Shown one piece after another: positions 18,251-36,641 of a stretch of DNA of 64,000 nt. A model generated the notes under the pieces. The model ran no database searches, was not told where the DNA came from, and saw only the letters and a list, made by a program, of their open reading frames with translations. The position numbers were made by a program, and so were the translations under genes. Origin of the DNA: Actinomycetaceae bacterium (lineage in GTDB: Bacteria > Actinomycetota > Actinomycetes > Actinomycetales > Actinomycetaceae); the NCBI GenBank assembly GCA_030532405.1, contig JAUNLF010000004.1, forward strand, positions 62,342 through 126,341. Reading direction: 5' to 3'. Each line of letters starts with the position of its first letter. The first letter of the stretch is position 1.

Positions 18251-18252
18251 CA

Positions 18253-20029: not shown

Positions 20030-20141
20030 GTCCTCATTTATATAAATTCCCCGCGTGGCCAACGCCCGTGGCGGCCGGATTTTCGCCCACTGTTAGAGGC
20101 CGCGCGCACGGCTGGCGCCGCGCGGTTGCTAAGCTTCAAGG

Positions 20142-21080: not shown

Positions 21081-21083
21081 CGC

Positions 21084-21160: not shown

Positions 21161-21173
21161 CAAGCGGCGCCGA

Positions 21174-21416
21174 CTACCAAGTAGGCTCGGTGGACGCCTC
21201 TTTTAGTCCAGCTTTTTGACCGTTCTGAACTGACTCGACCATTCCTGGGATCGACTGAAGGTACAGGGTCTCTTGGACTGAGATCCACGTGTCTTCGCTT
21301 ATTAACACCGCATTTTTTCGTTTACCGACTATAACAATAGGGTCATCTACGCCACTGAACCCAGCGATAATTTGCTCCAGATTCACAGCGGCATCCTCGG
21401 CTGTAATAGTCCTCAT
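21174..21416 (-). CDS. Phd/YefM family type II antitoxin (no cognate toxin gene adjacent)
   Basis: MRTITAEDAAVNLEQIIAGF...PIVIVGKRKNAVLISEDTWISVQETLYLQSIPG is the typical YefM/Phd fold sequence. I prefer the start at M11 of the track ORF (21416). Local GC is about 42% by hand count of one 60-nt line. Confidence 0.8.
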   Translation of the reverse strand: MRTITAEDAAVNLEQIIAGFSGVDDPIVIVGKRKNAVLISEDTWISVQETLYLQSIPGMVESVQNGQKAGLKEASTEPTW

Positions 21417-21507
21417 GTCGACAACGTATGCAATAACGAGTCGCACATCAATACCCTCGTGTCTGATCCTTCCATGTGGAGGGCGAAATCCGGATGCGCA
21501 TCGAGCC

Positions 21508-21570
21508 TTAACTTCCCACTTAACATAACACTAACTTCCCACAGTGTTATGTTAAGTGTTATGTTTGGTG
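21508..21570 (+). repeat. Copy B of ~70-nt hairpin repeat (perfect 14-bp stem)
   Basis: TTAACTTCCCACTTAACATAACACTAACTTCCCACAGTGTTATGTTAAGTGTTATG. The arms at 21518-21531 and 21544-21557 are perfectly complementary. It lies in the divergent intergenic region between the antitoxin and the AlbA_2 gene. Confidence 0.9.
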
Positions 21571-21595
21571 TTGAGCTAGGTTAGGCGGGTGCTCA

Positions 21596-23017
21596 ATGGA
21601 TGTTGAAAATATTGTTCTCAATCTAAGGATGCTGGGCAAGGACGACCAGACTGTCGAAGCTAAAGAGGGTGTGGGAAAGTCGATTCTTGAAACTCTTAGC
21701 GCATTTGCCAACAGCGGGGGAGGCATTGTTCTTGTAGGCATATCCGAGTCGCAAGGGTTTCAGATAGTTCCAGGTTTTGACGCCAAGCAGGCGGCTGACC
21801 AAATCCGAGACCGCGGAGAGCAAATCACCCCTCCGGTACGTCCAACCATATCGATCGTGCCTTTTGAAGGTGGCGATCTCGTAGTTGCCGAAGTTGATGG
21901 ATTCCCATCGCAGGATAAACCGGCATACGTTACTAATCGCGGTATGTACGGGGGTAGCTTTCAGCGTGTTGGGGATGCAGATATTAGGTTAACCCAGTAC
22001 GAGGTTGACCGAATGCGTGAAGAACGCACGCAACCTCGTTGGGACGAGCAACCTGTTCCGGGCGCTCGCCTTGCCGATTTGAATTCCGGGATGTTGGAGA
22101 GTTTTGTCGCTAAACAACGGTCTAGCAGACCGAAAACGTTTGCCGATGGAGACACCGTTGCCCTACAGAGGTTGAGGGTGCTTCGTGGTGAGGAGCTAAC
22201 GCTTGCCGCGCTACTTGCTATGGGGGACTACCCGCAGGAGTACTATCCGCGACTTACAGTTGCGTTCTCGGTCTACCCTGGAACATCAAAGGGTGACGTT
22301 ACTACTGGATTTCGCTTCCTGGATCGAAAGACTGTGAGCGGTTCGATTCCAGAAATTGTAGAGACAACTGTAGAACTTGTTTCTAACAATATGCGCTCAG
22401 GTGCTTTGATTGGAGATGTTTTCCGTAAGGAAATACAAGACTATCCCCTGGTGGCTGTCAGAGAAGCGATAGTTAATGCGTTAATGCACCGAGACTATTC
22501 TGAGCAGTCTCAGGGGAGTCAGGTTCAGGTGAACATGTTTGTAGATCGCCTTGAAATCATGAGTCCGGGTGGTCTTTATGGTGGGGTCACGCTGCAAACA
22601 TTGGGGGAGGTAGGGGCTAGTTCAACCCGAAACCAGCGTTTAGCCACATTCCTTGAATCTGTAGAGTTCCCCGGAGGAGGCATAGTTGCTGAAGGTCGTG
22701 GCACAGGACTTGCCGTTATCGGAAAGTCATTGGCAGAAAACCTGCAACCCGAGCCTAGTTTTAGAGCTGATCTAAATAGTTTCACCATTACTTTCTATAG
22801 GCGTCGTGTAGCACCTCAAGAAAAATACGCGACTGCTGAAGATCGTGTCCGGCAGGTGTTTAGCGGAGTCGAATCCGCGTCCACAACCGAACTCGTTAGC
22901 GAAACAGGGCTCAGCCGAACTGCGGTTCAAAAAGCAATCAACAAACTGATCGATGAAGATTTCCTAGAGCCCACAGAGCCGCATAGAAGTCCCAGACAAC
23001 GGTATCGAAGACTGTAA
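21596..23017 (+). CDS. AlbA_2 (Schlafen-like) DNA-binding domain + HATPase_c_4-like domain + C-terminal winged-helix protein
   Basis: N-terminal DQTVEAKEGVGKSILETLSAFANSGGGIVLVGI is the AlbA_2 motif. The central REAIVNALMHRDYS...VDRLEIMSPGGL is a divergent ATPase-like domain. The C-terminal TTELVSETGLSRTAVQKAINKLIDEDFLE is an HTH. Two sample lines counted by hand gave 38-50% GC, against 60-67% in flanking genes. Confidence 0.8.
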   Translation: MDVENIVLNLRMLGKDDQTVEAKEGVGKSILETLSAFANSGGGIVLVGISESQGFQIVPGFDAKQAADQIRDRGEQITPPVRPTISIVPFEGGDLVVAEVDGFPSQDKPAYVTNRGMYGGSFQRVGDADIRLTQYEVDRMREERTQPRWDEQPVPGARLADLNSGMLESFVAKQRSSRPKTFADGDTVALQRLRVLRGEELTLAALLAMGDYPQEYYPRLTVAFSVYPGTSKGDVTTGFRFLDRKTVSGSIPEIVETTVELVSNNMRSGALIGDVFRKEIQDYPLVAVREAIVNALMHRDYSEQSQGSQVQVNMFVDRLEIMSPGGLYGGVTLQTLGEVGASSTRNQRLATFLESVEFPGGGIVAEGRGTGLAVIGKSLAENLQPEPSFRADLNSFTITFYRRRVAPQEKYATAEDRVRQVFSGVESASTTELVSETGLSRTAVQKAINKLIDEDFLEPTEPHRSPRQRYRRL

Positions 23018-23035
23018 ACAGCGGAGTCTACGCGT

Positions 23036-23104
23036 GCGCGTTGAACTTCCCACTGGACATAACACTAGCTTCCCACAGTGTTATGTTAAGTGTTAAGTAA
23101 GTGG
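23036..23104 (+). repeat. Copy C of ~70-nt hairpin repeat
   Basis: GCGCGTTGAACTTCCCACTGGACATAACACTAGCTTCCCACAGTGTTATGTTAAGTGTTAAGTAAGTGG. The arms are 23052-23065 and 23078-23091. By hand alignment it matches copy A at about 62 of 67 positions. It ends about 20 nt before the hydrolase start. Confidence 0.9.
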
Positions 23105-23123
23105 CATGAGGAAGGGTGATCAC

Positions 23124-23891
23124 ATGGGCCAACACGAAGTTGAGTTCGAAGGCGCTCGCGGGCTGAAACTCGCCGGCATCTTGGACACGCCCGAAGGGGC
23201 CGTCAAAACGTGGGCTGTGATCGCGCATTGTTTCACGTGCAACAAATCAGTTCCCGCGGTGTCACGCATTGCAAAGTCGCTGAACAAGCTCGGTATTGGC
23301 GTGCTCCGGTTCGACTTCGCCGGCCTCGGAGCATCCGCTGGAAAGTTCACGGAATCAACATTTTCCGCGGACGTTGAAGACCTAAAAGCGGCTTGTAAAT
23401 GGATGGAGGGCGAAGGCCGAACCCCAAAGCTTTTGATTGGCCATTCGCTCGGCGGCGCGGCGGTGCTCGCAGCCGCGGGAGACATCCCCTCGGTCGTAGC
23501 GGTCGCCACCATTGCGGCGCCCTCCGACCCCGGACACGTTGCGGAACTACTAAAAGACCGACTAGCGCCCGTCTACGAAGCCGGCGTTGCCGAAATCCAA
23601 ATAGCCGGCCACACGATGATGGTGGGGGCGCCCCTATTTGACGACCTGACGAGCCAAAACGAGCATCACGAGCGCATCCGGAACCTGAATGCCGCGCTAC
23701 TGGTGATGCACTCGCCGCAAGACAGGGTGGTAGATATCCACAACGCGATGGATATCTACCGAACCGCTGAAATGCCGAAGAGCTTCATCGCCTTTGACGG
23801 CGCCGATCACCTTATGACAAAAAAGGGCGTCGCAGCGTGGGCGGGCGAAATGATCGCCGCGTGGGCCTCACGCTACGTGAGCGACCTATAA
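23124..23891 (+). CDS. Alpha/beta hydrolase
   Basis: GHSLGG nucleophile elbow and a C-terminal FDGADH. The ATG at 23124 is preceded by AGGAAGGG; the track start at 23106 has no RBS. Confidence 0.75.
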   Translation: MGQHEVEFEGARGLKLAGILDTPEGAVKTWAVIAHCFTCNKSVPAVSRIAKSLNKLGIGVLRFDFAGLGASAGKFTESTFSADVEDLKAACKWMEGEGRTPKLLIGHSLGGAAVLAAAGDIPSVVAVATIAAPSDPGHVAELLKDRLAPVYEAGVAEIQIAGHTMMVGAPLFDDLTSQNEHHERIRNLNAALLVMHSPQDRVVDIHNAMDIYRTAEMPKSFIAFDGADHLMTKKGVAAWAGEMIAAWASRYVSDL

Positions 23892-25292
23892 CCTGCTAGC
23901 CAAAATCTGGTCTGCACTAGCAACAATCGCACTAATCACCTCAGCGTCACCCGCAAGTGAGGGCGCAACAAACTCCAAAACCGCAGCCGCATCCTCCTCA
24001 ACAGACCTACCAACCAGGCCCGTCACACGGTCCGCATACGCGTCCTTCACCGGTGCGCCGTGACCCTGCAGGTGCAACATCCATGCCGCAACCGCCCTCA
24101 CCGCGCCCGCCGGCAGCTCGCCCTCATTACGCAATCGCACGAGTGTAGGCGAAATTCGAACCGGGATCTTCTGCGAACCATCATGCGCGATCTGAGCCAA
24201 CAGGTGACGAATATTCGGGTTCTCGTAGCGTTCAATTAGAGCCTTCGCGTACTCCTCCCACTCAACAGACAACCCAGAACCCGCTTCGGACCACCACTGC
24301 TCGACCCAAGACCGAACAGTCGCATCCGCAATCGCCTCACCAACCGTTTCAAACCCCAGAATCGACCCCGCGTAAGCCATCAGCGAATGCGAACCATTCA
24401 GCATCCACAGTTTGCGTTGCTCAAAAGGTTCAACATCCTCCACAACCTGCGCTCCGGCCGACTCCCAGTCGGGACGACCAGCGGGAAAATCACCAGAAAT
24501 AACCCACTCGCTAAACGGTTCCGTCGGCACCGGGGAAGCGTCCAGGTAGCCCTGCGCGCGTTCGACCTCGTCGCGCTCATCATCAGTCGTCGCGGGCGTA
24601 ATACGATCCACCATGCAGGTCGCCCACGCGACATTGTCGGCCGCCCACTCCAAAATTGACGAGTCCACTGCCTTTGCCGCATCCTTAACGACCCTCGAAA
24701 ACGCGGAACCATTATCCGGAATGTTGTCGCACGGCAACACCGTCAACTTCGTCGCTCCAGAAATCCTACGAGCAAGCAACCCCGCCAAAATGCGCGCCGG
24801 CGCAGTCGACACCCGCAACGACTTCACATCATCAACGCTGTAGTCACCGCCCTCCACCAGGCCCTTCAACGCAGCGAGGTCGCTAGCAACGTCCTCATTT
24901 TCAACATCCAACGACCCATCATCGCGCCGGCAGTAGCCCGCCTCGGTGACGGTCGAAGTTACCACCGCCAAATCCTCGGATGTGAAGTACTCGATTAACT
25001 GTGCAAAATCGGACGCGGGGTGGACGCGCGAAAGTGAAGAAATGACCTCGAATGAATCACCCTCATTACCCTTCGTAACAAGCGTGTACAGGCCATCTTG
25101 CGGTTCGAGTAGTTCCGCCATCGTTGGGCGCCGCCCCGTAAATGCTGCAATCCCCCAGTCGTTCGCGTCGCTAGCGTGCTCGGTGTACCACGCCTGGTGC
25201 GCGCGAGTGAAGTTCCCCAAACCTATGTGCACCATCTTGATAGGTGCGGCGGGACGGCCGTGCGATTCACGCGTTAACTTAGGTGCGCTCAT
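23886..25292 (-). CDS. Mannitol dehydrogenase family oxidoreductase, fructuronate reductase (UxuB)-like
   Basis: MVHIGLGNFTRAHQAWYT and VTSTVTEAGY resemble the E. coli UxuB motifs (IVHLGCGAFHRAHQA, SLTVTEKGY; from memory). It overlaps the uxaC stop by 4 nt. Confidence 0.75.
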   Translation of the reverse strand: MSAPKLTRESHGRPAAPIKMVHIGLGNFTRAHQAWYTEHASDANDWGIAAFTGRRPTMAELLEPQDGLYTLVTKGNEGDSFEVISSLSRVHPASDFAQLIEYFTSEDLAVVTSTVTEAGYCRRDDGSLDVENEDVASDLAALKGLVEGGDYSVDDVKSLRVSTAPARILAGLLARRISGATKLTVLPCDNIPDNGSAFSRVVKDAAKAVDSSILEWAADNVAWATCMVDRITPATTDDERDEVERAQGYLDASPVPTEPFSEWVISGDFPAGRPDWESAGAQVVEDVEPFEQRKLWMLNGSHSLMAYAGSILGFETVGEAIADATVRSWVEQWWSEAGSGLSVEWEEYAKALIERYENPNIRHLLAQIAHDGSQKIPVRISPTLVRLRNEGELPAGAVRAVAAWMLHLQGHGAPVKDAYADRVTGLVGRSVEEDAAAVLEFVAPSLAGDAEVISAIVASADQILASRL

Positions 25293-26710
25293 AGTTTGAA
25301 TACCTTTCGCGGCTGAGTGGTTACAAGATCGACGGCAACTTCCAAAGCTTCATCCATCTGCAGGCGGTGCTCCGCGACAAGCGATCCAAGGAACGCTGAA
25401 TCTACGCGGCGTGACACGTCGTGACGGGCCGGAATGGAACAGTACGCGCGAGTGTCATCAATGAACCCGCTCGTCTTGTAAAACCCTGCGTAACCCGTAA
25501 CCGCGCGCCGGTACCGCATGATCGCATCGGCTTCATCGATAAACCACCAGGGAGCGCCCACGTAAAGGCCACGATAGTAGCCTGCCAGCGGCGCTAGCTC
25601 GCGTGAATACGTGGTTTCGTCAATCGTGAAAACAACCAGTTGGAAGTTGTCGTGGTTGCCGTACTCCGCGAGGATTGGCTGCAACGCCCTCGAAAATTCA
25701 ACTGAATGAGGCACGTCGCCGCCCACATCCGCACCGTATTTCGCAAAAGCGTGCGGGTCGTGATTTCGAACCACCGCGGGATGCATTGTCATTACGAGGC
25801 CGTCTTCAACCGCTAGGCGCGCCTGGTCGTTTACCATGTGCCTGCGCAAAGCATCGCCCTCCGCAACAGAAATTTCCCCCTTGAGGGCGGACTTGTACAG
25901 GCGCTCCGCTTCAGTGTCGCTAAGGCGTTCGCAACGCGCGTCCGCGTGAGAGTGGTCTGTTGAAACCGCGCCGCGCTCCTTGAAGTAGAGGCGGCGAGTG
26001 CGCATGGCTTCTAAGTGCCCCTTGTAACTGGAGACATCAACGTCCGCCACTTCGCCTAACTTGTGTGTCAGGTCCACCCAGCCTTCACGGGCGGGCTCCA
26101 AGTACTTGTCGGGGCGGAACGTGGGCATGACGCGGCCGTCCCAGTCGGGATCATCCGCTAGCTGCTGGTGCTTCGCCAAGTCGTCGCAAGGGTCGTCCGT
26201 AGTCGCAAGGGCTTCGATGTTGAACCGCTTGTAAAGCGCTCGTGGACGATACTCCGGCTGTTCAATGCACACTTGAATTTGGTCGTAAATCTGGTCGGCG
26301 GTTTCCGCAGAAGGGCGGACTTTAACTCCGAACACGTCGTGGAACTCCGACTCGAACCAGAACTGCACGGGCGTTCCGCGCAGGTACTTCCAGTTCTCGC
26401 ACAGCAGTCGAAAAGCTGCCCTTGACTGCTCTTCGGAAATCTTAGAGCCCACCGGAACACCCAGATCAGCCAGTTCTACTCCCGCGGCTCCGTGCAACAT
26501 CCGGTTCGTGTAATGATCCGGGGTTAAAAGTAGCGATGTGGGGTCGGAAAATGGAATGTCGTCGGCTATCCACTCGACGGGCACATGCCCGTGCGGAGAG
26601 ATAATCGGCAGATCCTTCACGGCTTCGTAAAGCTCGCGGGTAATATCTCGAGTCTTCGGGTCGGCCGGAAATAGCCGATCGGGGTGCGGGTTCAAGGGCT
26701 TTGGAGACAT
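25289..26710 (-). CDS. uxaC: Glucuronate isomerase
   Basis: 473 aa. The N-terminus DRLFPADPKTRDITRELYEAVKDLPIISPHGH is the UxaC hallmark. Confidence 0.88.
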   Translation of the reverse strand: MSPKPLNPHPDRLFPADPKTRDITRELYEAVKDLPIISPHGHVPVEWIADDIPFSDPTSLLLTPDHYTNRMLHGAAGVELADLGVPVGSKISEEQSRAAFRLLCENWKYLRGTPVQFWFESEFHDVFGVKVRPSAETADQIYDQIQVCIEQPEYRPRALYKRFNIEALATTDDPCDDLAKHQQLADDPDWDGRVMPTFRPDKYLEPAREGWVDLTHKLGEVADVDVSSYKGHLEAMRTRRLYFKERGAVSTDHSHADARCERLSDTEAERLYKSALKGEISVAEGDALRRHMVNDQARLAVEDGLVMTMHPAVVRNHDPHAFAKYGADVGGDVPHSVEFSRALQPILAEYGNHDNFQLVVFTIDETTYSRELAPLAGYYRGLYVGAPWWFIDEADAIMRYRRAVTGYAGFYKTSGFIDDTRAYCSIPARHDVSRRVDSAFLGSLVAEHRLQMDEALEVAVDLVTTQPRKVFKL

Positions 26711-26741
26711 AAATTACTCGCTTTCGACAATGAAATCGGGG

Positions 26742-27767
26742 TCAGAACTTAGGGTGTGCGGGTCCAACGCTCTCTCGAAGTACGAGTTTCATTGGAACCA
26801 CTTGCGTTTCAGCCACAGGCGTACTCCTGTGACGCAGTTGCGATATAAGGGTTCTCGCTGCGCGGGCACCTATCTTTGCTGAAGGTGGACCAATCGACGA
26901 CAGCGATGGTGTTGTGAAAAAGGAGGCTACCGAGTTATCAAATCCGATCACTGAAACTGCTTCAGGAACCTCAAAACCACGCGTTTGCACGGCCTTAATA
27001 AACCCGATAGCAATCACGTCGTTGTAGCAAACCACAGCCGACGTTGGGCTTTGCAGCCATGCTTTCGCGCCTCTAACACCGCCTTCCAGCGTGGGACTGT
27101 TAGGTCCCACCCTGCGCAGGTGCAGACCAAACTGTTCGCAAGATTTAGCTAGCGCCCTCCATCGCATGCCGTCCGCCCACGACGCTGCGGGGCCGGACAG
27201 GTACGTTACGCGTTGGTGGCCCAGGTCGCGTAAGTGTTCAACGGCTTCGTGAACCGCCTGGTCGGTGTCTGGAACAATGGAGGGGATACCGACGGCGTGA
27301 CGATTTACCGCCACTACCGGTTTAACCTTCTTGATTTGGTTGATGGACGAGTCGCTCATCCTCGATGACGTCAAAACGATTCCGTCAACCAGGTGGAGGA
27401 CTCGCTCGATAGCGCTGCGTTCCTGCTGGTCGTCCTCTTGCGAATCGATAAGCAGTACGGTGTAGCCGTTCTTGGTTGCTTCGATTTGAAAGCCGCGCAT
27501 TGTTTGAGCGAACACGGGGTTTGAAATGTCGGCCACTACGAACGCTAATACGTTAGTGTCTTCCCCCAGGTCCGCACTGGTCACAGGTTTAGTGCGGTAC
27601 CCGAGTTCGGCCGCAATCTCTCGGATTCGCTGCCCGGTTTGCGCGTTGACGCGTCCGGGTCTTGAAAACGCTCGAGAAACCGTGGAGGGAGCTACGCCCG
27701 CAACCTTCGCAACATCGTAAATGGTGATGCGTTTGGGTTGCTTTGGATTTTCTTCAGCAGAAGTCAC
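26742..27767 (-). CDS. LacI family transcriptional regulator
   Basis: HTH ITIYDVAKVAGVAPSTVSRAFS followed by a periplasmic-binding-protein-like core. Its GTG start overlaps the larC stop (GTGA). Confidence 0.85.
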   Translation of the reverse strand: MTSAEENPKQPKRITIYDVAKVAGVAPSTVSRAFSRPGRVNAQTGQRIREIAAELGYRTKPVTSADLGEDTNVLAFVVADISNPVFAQTMRGFQIEATKNGYTVLLIDSQEDDQQERSAIERVLHLVDGIVLTSSRMSDSSINQIKKVKPVVAVNRHAVGIPSIVPDTDQAVHEAVEHLRDLGHQRVTYLSGPAASWADGMRWRALAKSCEQFGLHLRRVGPNSPTLEGGVRGAKAWLQSPTSAVVCYNDVIAIGFIKAVQTRGFEVPEAVSVIGFDNSVASFFTTPSLSSIGPPSAKIGARAARTLISQLRHRSTPVAETQVVPMKLVLRESVGPAHPKF

Positions 27768-29239
27768 GGTCGCTCACCTTCGCCCCCATGTCCAGGCCAG
27801 TTCGCACCCGAATACAGGCCACTTTCCGCGGCTGCGCACTGGGCGCGTGCCAGCGCAACGCGCTGTGGAACTGCGAGTACTTCAGCGAGCTTTTCGACGT
27901 CCACAAACTCTGCGGTTGCCTGCAGAATCTGGGTTTGCTCCCGGTTTGCTGAAATCTTTATGCGCACCGGATGGCCTTCTACCTGAACTGTTTGCCATTC
28001 GCGTTTGAGGACGCGGCGGTGTGCAGGTGCGGAAACTCTGGCTCCGATCGTCGACGTGTGATTCAAAAGCGCGTCAATCACCGCGTTTACGCTGTCTGCC
28101 TTGGCAAGGGCGCTGCACACGTGTGCGGGTCGCCCTTTTTTCATGATGACGGGAGTTAGCCACGCATCGAGGGCGCCGGCCTCCATCAGCTGGTCGATCA
28201 CCGCCGGCCACACTCGCGGGTCCAGGTCGTCAACATTGGCGTCAACTTGGACAACCGTGTCGGAACCGGTGAACTGCGGCTCGGTGGGCTGCGTAGCACC
28301 CGTATCCGGTGAGGCGGGGCTTCCCACTACTGCGCGGAGGATCCCTGCCCTGTCTTGTCGCACTCGACTTCCCGCTCCGAAACCGACAGTGTCCAGCTTC
28401 ATCGCTGGCATTGATCCGACTTTTGAACAGATCGCACGAATCAGGGTCATGCCGGTGGGGGTGCAAAGTTCTCCCACATCCTGTGGCCCACCCGCTTCGA
28501 TTTCCCACCCGCGCGAAAGCTCAACCACGGCGGGAGGGGGCACCGTTAAAGTGCCGTGCATAGTTTGGATCGTCCCGGCACCCACTGCGACCTTTGAGGA
28601 TGTCGCTTCACCGACCCGCAGCGTGCGAATCGCCTCGCAAACGCCAACAATGTCGCCAATAGAATCTAAAGCGCCTACTTCGTGGAAGTGGACAGATTCA
28701 ACACTTGCCCCGTGAACCTTAGCTTCTGCAACGGCGAGACGAGTAAACGCTTCAACCGCTAGTTCCCGCGTGAAACCAGGAACGTCCTCGTGGTCGAGCA
28801 TTGCTTTAATGTCGGAAAGGTGACGGGCCGGCGGATTAGGTTCGTCAGCAATTACGTCAATTTTGAGGGCGGAGAAGGCTCCGCGTTGGACTCGGCGTTG
28901 CTGCAAGTGAAGCTTGCCGGGGGCAATGATCTGCAGGACTCGTGCAACCGACCGGGCATCGGCGCCGGCATCGATGAGGGCGGCCAGGAGCATGTCGCCC
29001 GAAGCCCCCTCGGTGGCATCAATCCACAGTATGTTCTGGCTTTGTCCTTCGGGGGCTTGCCACAGATCGCCCGGCTCTATCGGCTCACCGGCCGGAACCT
29101 CATCCCCGTCCGCAGTGTGCACGTGCGGGTGGTGGTGGGTGTGCCCGTGCTCGTGCTTGCCGTGGCCGTGGGCATGTGGGTGCGCATGGTCGCCGTGGCT
29201 GTGGTGGTGCCCGGAAGGGCCGGTGGGAATATCATGCAT
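27764..29239 (-). CDS. larC: Nickel insertion protein LarC (single unsplit ORF) with His-rich N-terminus
   Basis: DUF111-type motif ILWIDATEGASGDMLLAALIDAG. The N-terminal tract is GHHHSHGDHAHPHAHGHGKHEHGHTHHHPHVH. I prefer the start at MHDIPTG (29239), which overlaps the larB stop by 8 nt. The track start at 29347 lies inside larB. Confidence 0.8.
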   Translation of the reverse strand: MHDIPTGPSGHHHSHGDHAHPHAHGHGKHEHGHTHHHPHVHTADGDEVPAGEPIEPGDLWQAPEGQSQNILWIDATEGASGDMLLAALIDAGADARSVARVLQIIAPGKLHLQQRRVQRGAFSALKIDVIADEPNPPARHLSDIKAMLDHEDVPGFTRELAVEAFTRLAVAEAKVHGASVESVHFHEVGALDSIGDIVGVCEAIRTLRVGEATSSKVAVGAGTIQTMHGTLTVPPPAVVELSRGWEIEAGGPQDVGELCTPTGMTLIRAICSKVGSMPAMKLDTVGFGAGSRVRQDRAGILRAVVGSPASPDTGATQPTEPQFTGSDTVVQVDANVDDLDPRVWPAVIDQLMEAGALDAWLTPVIMKKGRPAHVCSALAKADSVNAVIDALLNHTSTIGARVSAPAHRRVLKREWQTVQVEGHPVRIKISANREQTQILQATAEFVDVEKLAEVLAVPQRVALARAQCAAAESGLYSGANWPGHGGEGERP

Positions 29240-29948
29240 GGTCGTCCTCCTCGACGATGTCATTGCGAGTCGTGCGCGATCCGGTGGCGGCGATCTGGGC
29301 GGCCAAATGTCCAGCGCCGTAACCGTTGTCAATGTTGACAACTCCAACTCCGGGTGCGCATGCGTTTAACATTCCAAGTAGCGCGGCAACGCCACCAAAA
29401 GCGGCTCCATAACCAACTGAAGTTGGCACGGCGACGACGGGGCACGCAACTAATCCCGCAACGACCGATGCCAGTGCGCCTTCCATGCCCGCAACAACGA
29501 CGATCACGTCAGCTGACTCCAGCACATCTCGCCGCGACAGGATTCGATCCAATCCGGCCACGCCAACATCGACCAGTTCAACAACTTCGCGGCCCAAATA
29601 GCGTGCGGTCAAAGCGGCCTCCCGCGCGATCGGAACATCAGAAGTTCCCGCGCACGCGACGACTACGCGTCCTCCGCTAGGCTGGGGTGGTTGCGCTGGC
29701 CAGGCCAACAAGCGCGCGGTTTCGTCATACAGCGCGTCTGGCAGGACATCCAAAACGGCACGCGCATGCTCCGCGTTAGCCCGCGTAAAAAGTGCGCATC
29801 CAAGCTCGCCCTCACCGGCGTTAAAACGCTGCTTCCAAAGGCGCGCAATGTCGCGAACTTGCGATGCAGATTTGCCTTCGCAATAGATTGCCTCGGGGTA
29901 GCCGCGTCGCGCGAAACGCCCAAAGTCCAGGTTCGCGTCACTCATCAT
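29232..29948 (-). CDS. larB: Nickel pincer cofactor biosynthesis protein LarB (PurE-like carboxylase/hydrolase)
   Basis: The PurE-like core has VVVACAGTSDVPIAREA and VVVAGMEGALASVVAG. It lies between larE and larC. Confidence 0.8.
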   Translation of the reverse strand: MMSDANLDFGRFARRGYPEAIYCEGKSASQVRDIARLWKQRFNAGEGELGCALFTRANAEHARAVLDVLPDALYDETARLLAWPAQPPQPSGGRVVVACAGTSDVPIAREAALTARYLGREVVELVDVGVAGLDRILSRRDVLESADVIVVVAGMEGALASVVAGLVACPVVAVPTSVGYGAAFGGVAALLGMLNACAPGVGVVNIDNGYGAGHLAAQIAATGSRTTRNDIVEEDDHA

Positions 29949-30906
29949 GACCTCGCGTCGTTTTACCCGCGTTCAAAATCGACAAAGTGAACGCGCCGGA
30001 CCTAATCCCTTCCAGGTCAAGCGTCACGTGCTTGAATCCCGCGGCCTTAATTTCGTTCACGAGGGCGGACTTGCGATGCTGATCCAAAAGCAGGTCAAAC
30101 TCTTCGGTGGGAACCTCGACTCGGGCGAGGTCCCCGTGATGTCGAACCCTGCAGTCGCTAAAGCCCGCGCGCAGCACGGCGTCTTCCGCGAGGTCAATCA
30201 TCTTGAGCTTCTGTGCCGTCACCGCCTGGCCGTGCGGAATACGACTAGCCAGGCACGGAGCGGCCGGCTTATCCGCGCTTATCAGGCCAAAAGCCCGCGC
30301 AATGCTACGCACGTCCGCCTTAGTAGCCGACGCAGTCGCAAGCGGATAGAGCACACCGTGCTCACGCGCCGCCCTCCCGCCCGGCCTATCAATACGGGCG
30401 GCGTCATCGAGGTTCTCACCGTAAACCACAGGGCCAACACGGTGAGCATCCAGCACGCCCTCATCGAAACGGTTATAAAGTTCGTCTTTGCAAAAATAGC
30501 AACGATTCACGGGATTGCTAGCGTAGTTCGGATTCTCAAGCTCGCGGGTAACGACCTCGACAACTGCAAGGTCAAGCTGCTTCGCCTGGCGCAGTGCGAA
30601 CGATTTTTCGCGGCGAGCAAGGGACGCGGAATCGCCCAGTAGTAAGACGGTGCGCTCACGGCCTACGGCTCGCGCCACCAGGGTTGCAAGGACGGAAGAG
30701 TCCACGCCTCCCGAATATGAAACCCCTACTCTAAGATCCGTCGCGGCGTTTTCCGACTCGTCGAGTGCCGTCGTAATCTGGGCTGCAACCGCGTCTGCAA
30801 TCTTAGAAAGCTGCGCGGGCAAGTCTTGAAGCAGGTCGACCGCAGGAGCGTGAGTTAACGCGCTACTTAGGAGCATAAAATCACGCCTTGGTTCGGTCGA
30901 CGGCAA
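29938..30906 (-). CDS. larE: ATP-dependent sacrificial sulfur transferase LarE (PP-loop ATPase)
   Basis: PP-loop VSYSGGVDSSVLA and a conserved Cys in AAPCLASRIP. The start is either 30906 (overlapping larA) or the ATG at 30876, which lies 4 nt after the larA stop and is preceded by AAGG. Confidence 0.8.
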   Translation of the reverse strand: MPSTEPRRDFMLLSSALTHAPAVDLLQDLPAQLSKIADAVAAQITTALDESENAATDLRVGVSYSGGVDSSVLATLVARAVGRERTVLLLGDSASLARREKSFALRQAKQLDLAVVEVVTRELENPNYASNPVNRCYFCKDELYNRFDEGVLDAHRVGPVVYGENLDDAARIDRPGGRAAREHGVLYPLATASATKADVRSIARAFGLISADKPAAPCLASRIPHGQAVTAQKLKMIDLAEDAVLRAGFSDCRVRHHGDLARVEVPTEEFDLLLDQHRKSALVNEIKAAGFKHVTLDLEGIRSGAFTLSILNAGKTTRGHDE

Positions 30907-32182
30907 GCCGGTGTAGTAGTTCGCCAGCTTGGGGGACGATCAGCGTGTCCGGATCGTTTTGGAGCTGATCAAAATCCACATCCGCCGGATCCATATAAAC
31001 AAGGTTCACCGCTTCGACTTGTTCGCGTGGGATGGAGGTAGCCAAAATCACCTTGACCCGGTTTGATTCGACGCCCTCCTGCTCGTCGTACTCACCCATT
31101 CCGCGCAGGTGCGTAGAGTGGGCGAGTTCGCCCCACGGATGGTCCTTGAACTTGTCCCACTGTTTAACGAAGTAGTCGCGGCTGTGGTAGCCGATCTTCA
31201 TGAGACCGGGGTGCATGTGCGACACTTCGGTAATGTGCGGGGCGTACAGGATCAACTCGCCACCGTCTGCAACGACGGGTTCGAGTTTGTAAAAGCCTTT
31301 TGCCGCAGTCCAGATGTCTTCATACATTGTGGGCATGATCGAGACAACGCGCTTGTACGCCTTGTCAACGTACTTAACGTGAACGTCTGCCGACACGTTA
31401 GCGCACGCTTCCCACGACGATTTGGAGTCGCCAAACGACACGAACTGAAGGTCTAAACTGCCGGGTTTCACAATCATTCCGAGCAGCAGTTTTTGCGATG
31501 GTACCAGGTCTGCAGCCGCGTCAATCATCTGGCGAACCGGCGTGATGCCGCGCGCGCCAATCATTTCGTAACTGGTGATCAATGCGCCCACCCAGTGCGA
31601 CATGTCGATCACGTCATGACCGGACAGGCCCGGAAATAGGTACTTGTTGCCACCGGAAATGCCGACCACTTCGTGGGGGAGTACCGGCCCTAAAATCAGC
31701 GTGATGTCCGTGTCCACCACCATTTTGTTAACGAGGACGGTCATCGCCCGGTCCGTCAGGCGTCCGCCCGACAGTTCACTAATCCGTTCTTTCGGAATCG
31801 TGCCCAGGTTGGCGAAAGTTTCCTCTTCACGCCACGCGTGGTTGTAAATTTTCCAGCCGGGGTATTCGGATTCAAACTCGCCGGGCTTATTTCCCATGAG
31901 TTTTCCGATTGCTTCATCGGACATGTCATCGTGCGTGCCAAGCGCGATCACAACCCGCACGTCGCGCGGCCTGTCGCCCAGCGCCTCATAAACGTAGTGC
32001 GCCATCTTGTCTACGGGAGCGTGCCTTGTCCCATCGGGAACTACAAGAGTTACGCGTTTGCCGTCAAAATCGAAATTTCCTAATTGTTCGAGGACGAACG
32101 CGCGAATCTGTTCATCGGTCAGCACAACGTCCGCGCCGCCGACACTGGCGGCTTCCGGAAGCCCTGGATATAGATCAGTCAT
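30881..32182 (-). CDS. LarA-family nickel-pincer-dependent 2-hydroxyacid racemase/epimerase (substrate unknown)
   Basis: LVVPDGTRHAP and PHEVVGISGGNKYLFPG...SHW fit the LarA H...GxSGGxK...H pattern for the catalytic His, the NPN-tethering Lys and the Ni-binding His (pattern from memory). I prefer the start MTDLYPG at 32182, because an 11-bp GC hairpin (32243-32270) would otherwise lie inside the track ORF (start 32293). Confidence 0.75.
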   Translation of the reverse strand: MTDLYPGLPEAASVGGADVVLTDEQIRAFVLEQLGNFDFDGKRVTLVVPDGTRHAPVDKMAHYVYEALGDRPRDVRVVIALGTHDDMSDEAIGKLMGNKPGEFESEYPGWKIYNHAWREEETFANLGTIPKERISELSGGRLTDRAMTVLVNKMVVDTDITLILGPVLPHEVVGISGGNKYLFPGLSGHDVIDMSHWVGALITSYEMIGARGITPVRQMIDAAADLVPSQKLLLGMIVKPGSLDLQFVSFGDSKSSWEACANVSADVHVKYVDKAYKRVVSIMPTMYEDIWTAAKGFYKLEPVVADGGELILYAPHITEVSHMHPGLMKIGYHSRDYFVKQWDKFKDHPWGELAHSTHLRGMGEYDEQEGVESNRVKVILATSIPREQVEAVNLVYMDPADVDFDQLQNDPDTLIVPQAGELLHRLAVDRTKA

Positions 32183-32242
32183 ATCTTTACTGTGACCCCA
32201 ATCTCTGGTTACTGCAACAAGTTGCCACTTTTTACCGTAAGA

Positions 32243-32270
32243 GGGCCGAGCAGATTTTTCTGCTCGGCCC
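32243..32270 (-). terminator. Stem-loop between the PfkB kinase and the larA-like gene (possible internal terminator/attenuator)
   Basis: GGGCCGAGCAG / CTGCTCGGCCC form an 11-bp perfect stem with a 6-nt AT loop. There is no clear U-tract on the minus strand. Confidence 0.35.
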
Positions 32271-32370
32271 AATTCCTGATGTTTTGCAAGCACGCCCTCG
32301 AAAATCGGAATCTACGCGGGCGACCGCATTTTAAGTTGAAGGATTTACCAAAAGGGATGAAGCGGCTACC

Positions 32371-33444
32371 TCAGCGTTGGACGCGGGCGTTGCCCTCCCA
32401 GATTGACCAAACCTGCGCTTCGTCGGCGGGCGAACCGTAATCGTTAACCGACGTTGCTGCCAGTGCGCCGGTTGCCCAACCAAACTGCATGCACTTCTCG
32501 GCCGGCCAGCCCTTCAGGATGCCGTAAAGCACGCCACCAATCGAACCGTCGCCACCGCCGATACGATCAATCACCTGAATATCGCGCAGGCTTCCGACGT
32601 AGAAGTCGTCATCGCCCCACAGGATCATGCCCCACTTGTGGTGGTTGGCATTAACAACTTCACGCAGCGACGTTCCAATGTACTGGGCCTTCGGATAAGC
32701 CTCCCGGATTCGGCCAATCATTTCCTTAAAAGCACCGATTTCCGCGTCGATATCTTCGCCCCCGGCCTCCGGCCCTTTAATGCCAAGGCAGAGCTGGAAG
32801 TCCTCTTCGTTGCCGTACAAAATGTCGCAGTGCGTGGCAATGTCGTGGAAAGCTTCGGACAGCTCGTCCTCGCGGCCCTTCCAAAACGATGCACGGTAGT
32901 TCAAATCGAACGAAACCATCGTGCCGTTTTCCTTAGCAACGCGGGCGATCTGAACGCAGAACTTAGATGTTTGCGGAGACAGTGCCGCAACGAGTCCGGA
33001 CAGGTGGAGGATCTTCACGCCCTCGTCCTTGAACAGCTTGTCCAAGTCGAAGTCGTCCACGTCTAGCGTCAAACCGACTTCCCCGGCGCGGTCGTTCCAC
33101 ACGCGCGGTGCGCGACCTCCGAACCCAGAATCTGCAATGTTGAACTGGTGGCGGAATCCCCACGCGTCACCCTGCGGTTTGTCCGGGCCTTCAAACGCCA
33201 TCCCGCGGGCACGCAAGTCAGCCTTAATGAAAGCCGAAATGGGTGATCCTTCAACAAAGTTTGTGAGAACCTTCGTCGGCATTCCCAAGTGGGACGCAAC
33301 CGACGCTACGTTAGTTTCAGCCGAGGTGGCCTGCATGTAGTAGCGGTTCGAGGTGTGTACGGGCTGGCGGTTTTCTGGCGTAATGCGCACGCCGATCGAA
33401 GTGGGAACAACCATTGCCCACTTTGCGTCTTCACGTAGCTGCAT
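32371..33444 (-). CDS. PfkB family sugar(-acid) kinase, KdgK-like
   Basis: PfkB signature DRIGGGDGSIGG near the C-terminus, within a ribokinase-like layout. The start MQLRED at 33444 lies 4 nt after the gnd stop. The track start at 33537 overlaps gnd. Confidence 0.75.
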   Translation of the reverse strand: MQLREDAKWAMVVPTSIGVRITPENRQPVHTSNRYYMQATSAETNVASVASHLGMPTKVLTNFVEGSPISAFIKADLRARGMAFEGPDKPQGDAWGFRHQFNIADSGFGGRAPRVWNDRAGEVGLTLDVDDFDLDKLFKDEGVKILHLSGLVAALSPQTSKFCVQIARVAKENGTMVSFDLNYRASFWKGREDELSEAFHDIATHCDILYGNEEDFQLCLGIKGPEAGGEDIDAEIGAFKEMIGRIREAYPKAQYIGTSLREVVNANHHKWGMILWGDDDFYVGSLRDIQVIDRIGGGDGSIGGVLYGILKGWPAEKCMQFGWATGALAATSVNDYGSPADEAQVWSIWEGNARVQR

Positions 33445-33448
33445 TTTC

Positions 33449-34903
33449 TTAGGCCTCAACTTCCGGGCGGCCCTCTTGCGCCCACATAGTGTGGAAGGTG
33501 CCGTCCTTGTCGATCCGCTTGTAGGTGTGTGCGCCAAAGAAGTCGCGCTGGCCCTGAATCAGGGCGGCCGGCAGGCGCTCTGCGCGAACCCCGTCGTAGT
33601 AGGCCAGTGAGGACGAGAACACGGGGGTTGCAACCCCGTGCAACGCCGCCATCGACACCAGGCGACGCCAGTGCGGCAGTGCGCCAACGATCTTGTCGTA
33701 GAAGAAGTCATCCGCAATGAGCAGCGGCAGCTCGGCGTTCTTCTCGTAAGCCTTGGTGATGTCGTTTAGGAAGCGCGCGCGAATAATGCAGCCGCCCCTC
33801 CAAATCCGCGCCATGTCACCCAGCTTGATGTCCCAGTTGTATTCTTCGGCGGCAGCTTGAATCTCGTTGAAGCCCTGCGAGTATGCCACAATCTTCGACG
33901 CGTAAAGGGCCTGGCGGACGTCCTCGATGAACCCTTCACGATCCTCGATGTTCCAGTCCTCGGCCTTACCTTCAAAACCGCGAGCGGCTTCGCGCTGCTT
34001 CGGGGAGGACGACAGGCCGCGAGCAAACGTTGCCTCACCAATGCCGGTCACCGGCACGCCTAGCGACAGTGCGGTCTGAGTGGTCCAAGCGCCCGTGCCC
34101 TTCTGGCCCGCGGCGTCCACGATTAGGTCAACCAGCGGTTTACCCGTCTTGGCATCAACCTGGCGCAAAACTTCAACCGAAATCTCCATGAGGTACGAGT
34201 CCAGTTCGCCCTCGTTCCAACGTGCGAAAATGTCCGCAATCTCGGTGGGCTTCAAGCCCAGAGCCCGGCGCAGCAGGTCGTAGGCTTCGCCGATAACCTG
34301 CATGTCCGCGTACTCGATGCCGTTGTGGACCATCTTCACAAAGTGGCCCGCGCCGTCCTCACCAACGTGCGTGCAGCACGGCTCGCCGTCCACCTTCGCG
34401 GAAATCTTCTCTAGCATCGGGCCCAGACGGTCGTAGGATTCTTTAGATCCGCCCGGCATGATCGACGGGCCCCACAGGGCGCCCTCTTCACCACCGGAAA
34501 CGCCGCAGCCAACGAAGTGCAACCCGCGTTCGCTCATTTCGCGTTCGCGGCGAATCGTGTCGGTAAACAGCGAGTTGCCAGCGTCGACGATGATGTCGCC
34601 TTCGTCCATGCGTTCGGCGAGTTGTTCAATAACCGCGTCGGTTGCCGCACCGGCTTTCACCATGATGATCGCGCAACGTGGCGGCGTCAGCGCGGCCACG
34701 AAGTCGTCGATTGATTCTGCCGCGATGAACTGTGCTTCTTCGCCGTACTTGTCCATTACGGCTTCAGTCTTTGCGGAGGTCCGGTTGTGGATTGCCACAC
34801 GGTAACCGTTTCGCGCGAAGTTTCGGGCCAGATTACTGCCCATCACGCCCATGCCGGTTACGCCAATATCTGCAGATGCAGCCGCCGGGGTCTCGAGGGT
34901 CAT
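33449..34903 (-). CDS. gnd: 6-phosphogluconate dehydrogenase, decarboxylating
   Basis: IGVTGMGVMGSNLARNF Rossmann motif, GEDGAGHFVKMVHNGIEYADMQ, and a length of 484 aa. Confidence 0.9.
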   Translation of the reverse strand: MTLETPAAASADIGVTGMGVMGSNLARNFARNGYRVAIHNRTSAKTEAVMDKYGEEAQFIAAESIDDFVAALTPPRCAIIMVKAGAATDAVIEQLAERMDEGDIIVDAGNSLFTDTIRREREMSERGLHFVGCGVSGGEEGALWGPSIMPGGSKESYDRLGPMLEKISAKVDGEPCCTHVGEDGAGHFVKMVHNGIEYADMQVIGEAYDLLRRALGLKPTEIADIFARWNEGELDSYLMEISVEVLRQVDAKTGKPLVDLIVDAAGQKGTGAWTTQTALSLGVPVTGIGEATFARGLSSSPKQREAARGFEGKAEDWNIEDREGFIEDVRQALYASKIVAYSQGFNEIQAAAEEYNWDIKLGDMARIWRGGCIIRARFLNDITKAYEKNAELPLLIADDFFYDKIVGALPHWRRLVSMAALHGVATPVFSSSLAYYDGVRAERLPAALIQGQRDFFGAHTYKRIDKDGTFHTMWAQEGRPEVEA

Positions 34904-35129
34904 TACTACTCCTTCAATGTCGCCTATCTACAGAGTGGTACATAACACGCCTCGCGACAACCAGTTGCCATCATTTGCGCCGATCGTGCCACAAAGCAGA
35001 CTAATCGCGTGTTTTCTCAATAACCATACACGAGGGCGCCCCTGCTACGCGCTGCGAATACGGCGGTGGTGCCGGCTTGTTTGGGGTGTTTTTGCGCGTG
35101 AGGGCGTGCGGGTTTCCGCCCGGTGTTGC

Positions 35130-36518
35130 TTACGCGTTTTGGTGGGGTGTGCAGTTGGGTGGCAGAGGGCGGACTTCGTCGGTCCAAAACTCAGGCATCG
35201 GCCCGTCGTAGCCGCTGGGTACGTAGAGGCACGTGGGGTCGGATGCGAGCGGGTTGCGCGTGAGCGCGTACGCGGTGGACCGTGACCCGCCGCAGAAGTG
35301 GTTGTATTCGCACGCCCCGCATTTGCCTTCAAAGTCTTGCGGGCTTCGAAGCGCCCTCATGATTGGGGCGTCACGGTAAAGCTCGGCAAACGGTTTTTCC
35401 TTGATAGAGCCCACGTGGATTGGTAGGAATCCCGACGGGTACATGTCGCCCACGTGGTCGATGAAGGCGAACCCGGATCCGGAGTTAATCGCGAGCGGCG
35501 TGCGCGGGGGCCGCGGCTGTGAGGCGTGCTCGCCGAGTAGTCGTGTTGTTTCAGCGGTCAGCCAGTGGTAGAGCTCGCCGTGCTCAAACTCGCCACCCGT
35601 TTCAACGGCCTTCGCCCTCTGGAATGCAACGCGGCGATACTGCGGGGCTTCCGTCGTTTTAATCGCAATCCGATCGGACACGTCATGAAGCCAATGGAGG
35701 ACGTCTTCGCGTTCGCGGGGGCTCATCGCATCAAGCTGCGCTCCGCGTCCGGTTGGAACCAGGAAGAACACGTACCACATGAACGCGTCCAACTCGATAG
35801 CTTTGGCCAGCATTGCGGGGGCTTCGTGAATGTTCCCCCTCGTGAGTGTCGTGTTGATCTGGAGACGGAATCCGACCTCCTTAATCAACTTCGTGGCCTC
35901 AATAGTCTTGTCGAATGTGCCCGTGATTCCGCGGAAATTGTCGTGCGTTTGCGCAGTCGCCCCATCCATGGACACCGACATTGCGCGGCCACCCGCGTCC
36001 TTCAACGCCTGCAGGCGCTCGCGGGTAAACAGTGGAGTGACCGACGGTGAAATCGACATTGACAGCCCCAAACTGCTGCCGTACTCGACAATCTCCACAA
36101 GGTCAGTGCGTTCGAAACAATCCCCACCAGTTAGGACCACGAGGGGTCGAGGACGCTCGTACTGCGCTAGTTGGCGAAGCAAGTCTTTGCCCTGCTCGGT
36201 GGTGAGTTGCAGCGGGTGCGCGTTGGGGTGAGCCTCCGCCCGACAGTGCTTGCAAACTAGTGCGCACGCGCGAGTGACCTCCCAGATAACAATGAAAGGT
36301 TTTTCACCCAGGTCGTGCTTGATTTCGCGGACGATAGCGCCGGGGCGTCCATCCGGTCGCCGCATGCTCCCAAGATCACCGGGATGCCCGCCCGGGTGAC
36401 CTCCCGGATGCCCGCCCGGGTGCGTGTGGCTAACGTCAACTTCGGTCGGGTGTCCGTGGGGGTCCTGTACGTCCTGGGGGATTCCGTGCGGGTGCGCGGT
36501 GTGCGGGTGCGATGGCAT
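35130..36518 (-). CDS. Radical SAM/SPASM domain protein (NirJ/AhbD-like architecture) with His/Pro/Gly-rich N-terminal extension
   Basis: CxxxCxxC in VTRACALVCKHCRA. The C-terminal SPASM-like Cys motif is CGACEYNHFCGG...DPTC. The N-terminus is MPSHPHTAHPHG...SHTHPGGHPGGHPGGHPGD. The ATG at 36518 is preceded by GAAGGAG. Confidence 0.8.
   Translation of the reverse strand: MPSHPHTAHPHGIPQDVQDPHGHPTEVDVSHTHPGGHPGGHPGGHPGDLGSMRRPDGRPGAIVREIKHDLGEKPFIVIWEVTRACALVCKHCRAEAHPNAHPLQLTTEQGKDLLRQLAQYERPRPLVVLTGGDCFERTDLVEIVEYGSSLGLSMSISPSVTPLFTRERLQALKDAGGRAMSVSMDGATAQTHDNFRGITGTFDKTIEATKLIKEVGFRLQINTTLTRGNIHEAPAMLAKAIELDAFMWYVFFLVPTGRGAQLDAMSPREREDVLHWLHDVSDRIAIKTTEAPQYRRVAFQRAKAVETGGEFEHGELYHWLTAETTRLLGEHASQPRPPRTPLAINSGSGFAFIDHVGDMYPSGFLPIHVGSIKEKPFAELYRDAPIMRALRSPQDFEGKCGACEYNHFCGGSRSTAYALTRNPLASDPTCLYVPSGYDGPMPEFWTDEVRPLPPNCTPHQNA
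36382..36422. repeat. Tandem 24-nt periodic repeat inside the radical SAM gene, encoding (GGHP)n
   Basis: GGATGCCCGCCCGGGTG occurs at 36382-36398 and again at 36406-36422. The reverse-strand translation is HPGGHPGGHPGGHPG. Confidence 0.85.
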
Positions 36519-36641
36519 AGCCACTCCTTCGTGAAAAAGTCGCTCCCAGTGTAAAACCGAAGACGCGCACTTCTTGAACACCGGTGTGGCCGTGCTTGAC
36601 TCGACCCCCGCGAGGCCCGGTAACTCCCCGATTGTGGGCGG

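Follow-up and report, generated by a model that had tools for sequence, protein, structure and literature searches.

The 64,000-nt window analyzed here, a stretch of contig JAUNLF010000004.1 from an Actinomycetaceae bacterium, carries at positions 23886-34903 a cluster of nine co-directional minus-strand genes, identified by Pfam, NCBIfam and direct reading. In transcription order, they are gnd, a PfkB kinase gene, a larA homologue, larE, larB, larC, lacI, uxaC and the gene of a UxuB-like reductase (Table 1). We consider this cluster, at a probability of roughly two in three (0.68), to be a glucuronate/glucuronide catabolic regulon in which nickel-pincer C2 epimerization replaces UxuA, KdgK and KdgA. 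UxaC would isomerize glucuronate, probably freed from glucuronides in many relatives, to fructuronate, and the reductase would convert fructuronate to D-mannonate. The LarA homologue, a member of group 19 of the LarA superfamily, would then invert C2 with nickel-pincer nucleotide (NPN) as its cofactor, supplied by the co-encoded LarB, LarE and LarC, the KdgK-like PfkB kinase would phosphorylate C6, and Gnd would decarboxylate 6-phosphogluconate to ribulose-5-phosphate. In this route, we infer what the kinase phosphorylates, which substrate the reductase takes, the effector, the in vivo flux and whether epimerization precedes phosphorylation. The interval thus brings together a mannonate-forming branch, a C2 epimerase, a proposed hexonate kinase and Gnd, in a window that holds no UxuA or KdgA.

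The first-pass annotation of this DNA had placed every named gene on the correct strand and at the correct coordinates, as judged by Pfam and NCBIfam, but had counted ten genes where the interval contains nine. The tight junctions that it described can each be read from the sequence: gnd and the kinase gene are separated by 4 nt, larE and larB overlap by 11 nt, larB and larC overlap by 8 nt, and the larC/lacI and uxaC/uxuB junctions are GTGA and ATGA overlaps, respectively. The larA homologue and larE are 4 nt apart, provided that LarE starts at the ATG at 30876, and lacI and uxaC are 31 nt apart. Since the full nine-gene order is found again in a second locus (L005) and portions of it are seen in dozens of genera, the cluster is not a chance arrangement.

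The LarA homologue contains a Lar_N domain (Pfam, 2e-22), and its best solved relative is Thermotoga maritima TM0442 (GntE2; PDB 4NAR, E 3e-54, residues 58-463 of the open reading frame (ORF)). It is 51% identical to GntE1 of Corynebacterium glutamicum and, in comparison with the sequences of Dataset S2 of Desguin et al. (2020), shares 43-56% identity with group-19 members, 32% with group 20 and 26% with group 18. In a simple neighbor-joining tree of the truncated sequences in that dataset, the protein falls within group 19 beside the Brachybacterium/Corynebacterium branch, which provides the phylogenetic placement that the first-pass annotation had suggested as a check. The nearest database homologues, which are 75-88% identical, come from Tessaracoccus, Arachnia and metagenome-assembled genomes of Propionibacteriaceae, which hints at a Propionibacteriaceae-like host for the cluster.

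The active-site residues point in the same direction. All 20 signature positions (D50, R53, H84, H170, E171, V172, K180, H196, V216, W291, T292, A294, K295, G351, L353, A354, S356, T357, H358 and R360) agree with the commonest group-19 pattern in Dataset S2, and 19 of the 20 agree with GntE1, which has Ile at the position of one Leu. The signature takes in the two catalytic histidines, the NPN-anchoring lysine and the nickel-binding histidine, and LarA residues D72, R75, H108, H174, K184, H200 and K298 have their equivalents in D50, R53, H84, H170, K180, H196 and K295. The group-19 pocket pattern (E-V loop; W-T-x-A-K in alpha11; G-x-L/I-A-x-S-T-H-x-R in alpha14) is fully matched, and the substrate pocket differs from that of LarA by the changes of F175/F176 to E/V and of Y294/Q295 to W/T. 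The lactate- and malate-racemase models of NCBIfam score 59-96 bits against cut-offs of 460-500 (58.8 bits versus 460 for the lactate-racemase model NF033504), and these scores and the pocket residues together rule out a lactate or malate racemase. The protein is not a member of group 18 either (NF052594, 178 bits versus a cut-off of 500). Its placement, signature and low racemase scores therefore identify it as a GntE1-type enzyme, and the predicted activity is that of an NPN-dependent D-mannonate/D-gluconate 2-epimerase, or of the 6-phospho form. Desguin et al. (PMC7583248) assayed 13 LarA homologues and found D-gluconate 2-epimerase activity in two, GntE2 (group 20, TM0442) and GntE1 (group 19, C. 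glutamicum), which convert mannonate to gluconate in vitro; the first-pass annotation had also listed such an enzyme in the superfamily.

The genomic surroundings of related epimerase genes were examined in a scan of one genome per species, which gave at least 597 stretches encoding relatives; 80 of these were kept and, with three other loci, make up a set of 83. Genes within 10 kb of the epimerase gene were counted by tblastn, for which the window proteins and four additional reference proteins served as queries; the counts are lower bounds, as many loci stop at contig edges. The reductase was found in 48 of the 83 loci, UxaC in 45, LarE and LarB in 37 each, LacI in 36, LarC in 35, an FGGY kinase in 12, a GPH-type permease in 9, Gnd and an enzyme of glycoside hydrolase family 2 in 8 each, and the window-type PfkB kinase in 7. 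The glycoside hydrolase is a beta-glucuronidase by its NCBIfam equivalog (862 bits versus 544), the linked permease resembles glucuronide transporters, and the best model for the FGGY kinase is gluconokinase, with a score under the cut-off of that model. In the usual arrangement, (kinase)<-reductase<-uxaC diverges from the epimerase gene. These counts extend the published group-19 context table, which lists LarE, LarB, LacI, UxaC, COG0246, LarC and beta-glucuronidase (PMC7583248), and point to glucuronide/glucuronate as the entry substrate. Two loci of the comparison are arranged differently. In Flaviflexus massiliensis (L084, 6373-14779), the order is gnd-pfkB-larE-larB-lacI-uxaC-reductase, with an operator upstream of gnd, and neither a LarA homologue nor LarC was found within 8 kb. 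In Georgenia (L002), the LarA homologue-LarC and LarE-LarB genes occur as separate pairs. These two loci suggest two movable modules.

The set of NPN biosynthesis genes is complete, with LarB, LarC and LarE all scoring beyond the curated cut-offs; LarE has the cysteine motif PAAPCLASR, and the translated LarC has a His-rich N-terminus. For the upper pathway, the UxaC-reductase pair is found in about half of the 83 loci. The reductase lies under all NCBIfam cut-offs (DalD, 257 bits; fructuronate reductase NF011611, 242 bits against 603; tagaturonate reductase UxaB, 184 bits), and its best PDB match is Escherichia coli YdfI, a UxuB paralogue (4IM7, 7e-66). Since the gene is translationally coupled to uxaC and linked to beta-glucuronidase, fructuronate is favored as the substrate, and we propose that the enzyme is a UxuB-like fructuronate reductase that makes mannonate.

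The kinase has a PfkB fold and thus belongs to neither of the known gluconokinase families (P-loop or FGGY). Its score is below every NCBIfam cut-off for 2-keto-3-deoxygluconate (KDG) kinases (NF041332, 93 versus 440; NF040938, 40 versus 400; NF052444, 31 versus 400). Its best PDB match is T. maritima KdgK (2AFB, 6e-28), and 1V1A is also distantly similar, which justifies the first-pass caveat that the kinase looks KdgK-like and unlike a known gluconokinase. Orthologues of exactly 357 residues, 74-91% identical, are widespread in Propionibacteriales and Actinomycetales. The gnd start codon, ATG at 34903, is preceded by a GAAGGAG ribosome-binding site, and the Gnd-PfkB adjacency is repeated in Tessaracoccus, Arachnia, Flaviflexus, Actinomyces and Parenemella. 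In two further loci (L049 and L054), PfkB orthologues with 67-77% identity occupy the slot after the reductase gene that an FGGY kinase holds elsewhere.

Among the remaining 38 candidate ORFs of the window, searched with Pfam, and one further ORF judged by eye, there was no lactate gene, true UxuA, 2-keto-3-deoxy-6-phosphogluconate (KDPG) aldolase, gluconokinase or hexuronate transporter. The absences that the first-pass annotation had reported for lactate genes, uxuA and KDPG aldolase therefore hold within the window. A weak secondary Pfam hit to UxuA at 50179-51039 was rejected as a superfamily cross-hit of an IolE-like TIM-barrel protein that belongs to an inositol cluster. UxuA and KDPG aldolase are likewise absent from the related loci inspected, and none of the additional ORFs examined in L025, L050 and L054 encodes UxuA, KDPG aldolase or gluconokinase. 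The coupling to gnd, the conserved Gnd-PfkB adjacency, the replacement in the FGGY slot and the lack of UxuA or KDPG aldolase in these searches favor a hexonate 6-kinase over a KDG kinase, and we propose that the PfkB kinase phosphorylates gluconate or mannonate at C6.

Two other loci show the kinase in different company. L025 (4290-10000) is a single operon with uxaC, the reductase gene, a gluconokinase-like FGGY kinase and a PfkB kinase, so a simple interchangeability of the two kinase types had to be softened. Actinomyces culturomici (L085, 221-9074) has gnd-pfkB at the end of an operon that encodes a cyclase-family protein, two 2-hydroxyacid dehydrogenases, a HIBADH-like protein, a mannitol-dehydrogenase-family protein and a zinc alcohol dehydrogenase, without UxaC or a LarA homologue. 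This operon may represent another sugar-acid route that meets the same kinase-Gnd pair.

A near-palindrome occurs in each of the two promoter-bearing spacers (O1 and O2); its near edge is located 51 nt upstream from the ATG of gnd and about 30 nt upstream from that of the larA homologue, respectively. In the window alone, the evidence for this element is weak, with 6 matches at up to two mismatches against 3.7 expected. The motif was idealized as TGGCAAC-N2-GTTGCCA and tested at the same tolerance on the 83 independent loci, where 33 matches were found against about 4 in shuffled sequence. Of the 33 matches, 22 lie no more than 300 nt upstream of a pathway gene, in zones that together account for 7% of the DNA (binomial p = 4e-18). 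The sites are located in the divergent spacer between uxaC and the epimerase gene, upstream of lacI, beta-glucuronidase, permease and larE genes, and upstream of gnd in L036 and L050. In Flaviflexus, an identical copy of the larA-proximal site of the window starts 74 nt upstream of gnd. The palindrome has the shape typical of a LacI-family operator, and it is presumably bound by the LacI protein of the cluster, an orthologue of which is encoded in 36 of the 83 loci, often with the palindrome just upstream. The cluster would then form two transcription units, gnd-kinase and larA-larE-larB-larC-lacI-uxaC-uxuB, each preceded by a palindrome.

The GC-rich hairpin that the first-pass annotation had reported at 32243-32270 does exist, with a 12-bp stem, in a 188-nt kinase-larA spacer whose minimum free energy has a z-score of -3.1. 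A consensus terminator scan made no call at this hairpin because its T-tail is short (UCUU), and the element is possibly a weak-tail terminator or an RNA-stabilizing structure. The corresponding spacers in two close relatives (L004 and L005) are just 27-50 nt long and leave no room for a hairpin, so a split of the transcript at this point is not conserved. Even if the hairpin separates the two transcripts here, the conserved palindrome before gnd and before larA argues for co-regulation of gnd-kinase and larA...uxuB. An Rfam search of 23-37.8 kb identified neither a riboswitch nor a known RNA; its single below-threshold hit lies inside a radical-SAM gene.

The gene identities, the group membership, the conserved linkage and the conserved operator are direct observations, and the NPN-dependent route put forward in the first-pass annotation fits them: a group-19 epimerase, conserved linkage among UxaC, reductase, beta-glucuronidase, kinase and Gnd, and an operator shared by both units. 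The following points weigh against this route. GntE1 has a Km of 120 mM for mannonate, which led its discoverers to question mannonate as the native substrate (PMC7583248). The characterized nearest relatives of the kinase, by family and structure, are KDG kinases, and the co-occurrence of FGGY and PfkB kinases in L025 means that the two may differ in substrate. Sequence does not place the reductase with fructuronate over tagaturonate. Gnd lies near the epimerase gene in just 8 of the 83 group-19 loci and may be a plain housekeeping copy in the window; the cluster has no hexuronate transporter; and uxuA, kdgA or gntK may lie outside the visible 64 kb of the genome.

The first-pass annotation had called the route undescribed, but its concept and its key enzyme activity are already in print. 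GntE and GntK were proposed to link mannonate to 6-phosphogluconate in T. maritima (Rodionova et al. 2012, as reported in PMC7583248 and PMC6978723). The epimerase activity was confirmed by Desguin et al. (2020), in whose view it probably gives mannonate access to the pentose phosphate pathway (PMC7583248), and a bypass from mannonate through 6-phosphomannonate to 6-phosphogluconate was demonstrated in Lactobacillus suebicus (Valk et al. 2020, PMC6978723). The present finding therefore extends known work. In the accessible literature, we found no explicit statement of the route for group 19 or for Actinobacteria, no assignment of the PfkB kinase and no account of the operator.

The closest known system is that of C. 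glutamicum GntE1, which is likewise actinobacterial and whose published group context (LarE, LarB, LarC, LacI, UxaC, COG0246 reductase and beta-glucuronidase) corresponds to that of the window. On the other hand, the window adds the KdgK-like PfkB kinase and Gnd directly upstream, both rare in group 19 (7 and 8 of the 83 loci). The T. maritima GntE2/GntK/Gnd system follows the same logic, in which mannonate from an upper isomerase branch is epimerized at C2, phosphorylated and passed to Gnd, and its epimerase is homologous. However, that epimerase belongs to group 20 and is 32% identical, the kinase of Thermotoga is a member of COG1070 (the pentulose/hexulose sugar kinase family that includes FGGY kinases) instead of PfkB, the regulator is of the GntR type instead of the LacI type, and larBCE, present in the window, is not listed in the group-20 context table. 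Group 18 ("putative hexonate epimerase") has a similar context, with Gnd in 32%, a ribokinase-family kinase in 16% and UxaC in 12% (Table S1, PMC7583248), although the window protein is too distant to belong to it. Gluconate 2-epimerase activity was later shown for a LarA homologue from Phytophthora (LarAH15); we infer that it lies in the group-18 branch from the listing of P. infestans in group 18. The published group-18 list has no Lactobacillus members.

With regard to the order of the two middle steps, we slightly favor that free mannonate is epimerized first and gluconate is then phosphorylated, because the interconversion of free mannonate and gluconate is the only activity yet shown for a group-19 enzyme. 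It is also consistent with the observations that most UxaC-positive loci have no dedicated kinase and that the FGGY genes are gluconokinase-like. The reverse order, in which the PfkB protein would be a mannonate 6-kinase and the group-19 LarA homologue a 6-phosphomannonate 2-epimerase that delivers 6-phosphogluconate to Gnd, is a tentative but serious alternative. Extracts of L. suebicus did not convert mannonate to gluconate without ATP, but formed 6-phosphomannonate and interconverted it with 6-phosphogluconate, and a GntE homologue is abundant in the proteome of this organism (PMC6978723). The high Km of GntE1 for free mannonate also points to a different native substrate, the window kinase is outside the known gluconokinase types, and in Parenemella the reductase gene adjoins the PfkB gene, with no epimerase gene within 8 kb. 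A "mannonate kinase" is scarcely mentioned in the accessible literature. The L. suebicus pathway (the hybrid isomerase-phosphoketolase pathway) resembles the proposed route in leading from mannonate to 6-phosphogluconate, in the decarboxylation by Gnd, in bypassing UxuA, KdgK and KdgA and in being redox-neutral. It differs in that the kinase acts first and a 6-phosphomannonate 2-epimerase second, and in that it starts from galacturonate, which requires UxaE; furthermore, the two activities found there are orphans. Against the kinase-first order, activity of group-19 enzymes on phosphate esters is a prediction only, free mannonate is turned over by all three GntE-type enzymes assayed, including LarAH15, and the FGGY kinases of these operons score best with the gluconokinase model. 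Many group-19 loci with UxaC and reductase have no kinase within 10 kb, which fits a housekeeping gluconokinase. If the kinase does act first, genes would be assigned to the two orphan activities of L. suebicus and the 120 mM Km of GntE1 would be explained; Actinobacteria would then have a widespread, nickel-dependent and redox-neutral route from glucuronate to the pentose phosphate pathway, organized as a LacI-type regulon with the operator TGGCAAC-N2-GTTGCCA.

The classical Ashwell pathway shares with the cluster UxaC, a mannitol-dehydrogenase-family reductase and a KdgK-like PfkB kinase. If it operated here, the PfkB protein would be a true KDG kinase, uxuA and KDPG aldolase would be encoded elsewhere, the LarA homologue would be a side link and gnd a housekeeping neighbor. 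The best family and structure matches of the kinase are indeed KDG kinases, some sources label its orthologues 2-dehydro-3-deoxygluconokinase, and our inspection covered only 64 kb of the genome. We nevertheless consider this explanation unlikely, since the KDG-kinase equivalog scores are far under the cut-offs (93 versus 440 and 31 versus 400) and the kinase gene is tied to gnd behind the pathway operator, an adjacency that is kept across five genera. No UxuA or aldolase was seen in any locus inspected, the kinase is coupled to Gnd and not to an aldolase, and the same operon position is held in other genera by FGGY kinases, for which no action on KDG is known.

It is highly improbable that the LarA homologue acts on another acid, such as lactate, malate or an aldarate (glucarate/mannarate), with unrelated sugar-acid neighbors: Desguin et al. 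speculatively suggested aldarates as group-19 substrates because of the high Km of GntE1 (PMC7583248), and a malic enzyme (41491-42975, minus strand) and a DASS/SLC13-type anion transporter (43239-44711, plus strand) lie in the window 9-12 kb away, but the racemase scores and the substrate-position residues unlike those of LarA argue against it, no lactate or aldarate genes are nearby, six unrelated genes separate the malic enzyme from the cluster, and the UxaC/reductase linkage is conserved and the operator shared with gnd. The malic enzyme has an N-terminal extension, and its gene is divergent from that of the transporter, whose assignment comes from reading the translation by eye and not from Pfam. 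Together the two have the look of a unit for taking up and decarboxylating malate, with no relation to the Lar cluster.

Table 1. Genes and sequence elements of the cluster, in window coordinates.
Feature	Position	Strand	Basis and remarks
Operator-like palindrome O1, TGGCAACTGGTTGTCG	34955..34970	.	upstream of gnd
gnd, NADP-dependent decarboxylating 6-phosphogluconate dehydrogenase, 484 aa	33449..34903	-	Pfam 6PGD 1.6e-124; NF006765 732 bits vs 413
PfkB-family sugar-acid kinase, KdgK-like, 357 aa	32371..33444	-	Pfam PfkB; ATG 4 nt past gnd stop
GC-rich hairpin, GGGCCGAGCAGA / UCUGCUCGGCCC	32243..32270	-	12-bp stem; in kinase-larA spacer
Operator-like palindrome O2, TGGCAACTTGTTGCAG	32212..32227	.	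upstream of larA homologue
LarA homologue, group 19 (GntE1 type), 433 aa	30881..32182	-	Lar_N domain, tree, signature
LarE, ATP-dependent sacrificial sulfur transferase	29938..30906 (start ATG 30876 or TTG 30906)	-	TIGR00268 245 bits vs 150
LarB, nicotinic acid adenine dinucleotide (NaAD) carboxylase/hydrolase	29232..29948	-	NF033503 269 bits vs 175; Pfam AIRC
LarC, nickel insertase, fused LarC1-LarC2	27764..29239	-	Pfam Ni_insertion 5e-114; LarC1 175 vs 90, LarC2 118 vs 50 bits
LacI-family repressor	26742..27767	-	Pfam LacI + Peripla_BP_1/3
UxaC, glucuronate (uronate) isomerase	25289..26710	-	NF002794 526 bits vs 387
Long-chain mannitol-dehydrogenase-family reductase, UxuB-like	23886..25292	-	Pfam Mannitol_dh N- and C-terminal domains

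On the side of the reductase gene, the stretch at 20000-24000 has a lower G+C content (0.54, compared with about 0.59) and may be acquired DNA flanking the cluster. It encodes a family-2 glycosyltransferase, a Schlafen AlbA_2/HATPase_c_4 protein (21596-23017) and an alpha/beta hydrolase, the gene of which is convergent with the reductase gene and overlaps its end by 6 nt. Further along, 15098-19959 encodes the gamma, alpha and beta subunits of a 2-oxoacid:ferredoxin oxidoreductase and, after them, a Fer4_20/Pyr_redox_2 flavoprotein with a C-terminal 4Fe-4S dicluster domain. Directly upstream of gnd, a radical SAM/SPASM protein is encoded at 35130-36581 on the minus strand (TIGR04053, 514 bits versus a cut-off of 395); its N-terminal extension is unusual and rich in His, Pro and Gly (HPHTAHPHG...HPGGHPGGHPGGHPGD). 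This gene is followed by that of a GntR/UTRA regulator (36642-37391) and, at 37705-39447 on the plus strand, by that of a 580-aa protein, predicted to be secreted or lipid-anchored, with a Pro/Glu/Ala-rich linker and no Pfam match.

The inositol cluster is a myo-inositol catabolic cluster at 50179-63586. It comprises genes for the IolE-like protein (50179-51039), two IolG-like GFO oxidoreductases (51114-52100 and 53708-54904), a sugar transporter (55010-56701), an IolC-like PfkB kinase (57101-58108), a Cgl0159-like protein (58113-58976), IolB (58973-59866), IolD (59889-61793) and an aldehyde dehydrogenase (62087-63586). A transaldolase is encoded at 52185-53333.

For the group-19 enzymes, the cluster offers a clean genomic argument for a physiological role, the delivery of glucuronate-derived mannonate to 6-phosphogluconate. 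The proposed route would make the use of glucuronate and glucuronides nickel-dependent in many Actinobacteria, including the host-associated Arachnia, Actinomyces, Dermabacter and Brachybacterium. It would be redox-neutral, a property noted as attractive for the engineering of uronic-acid fermentation. The cluster also supplies candidates for a hexonate kinase, for the orphan mannonate-kinase and 6-phosphomannonate-epimerase activities, and for a predicted repressor-operator pair.

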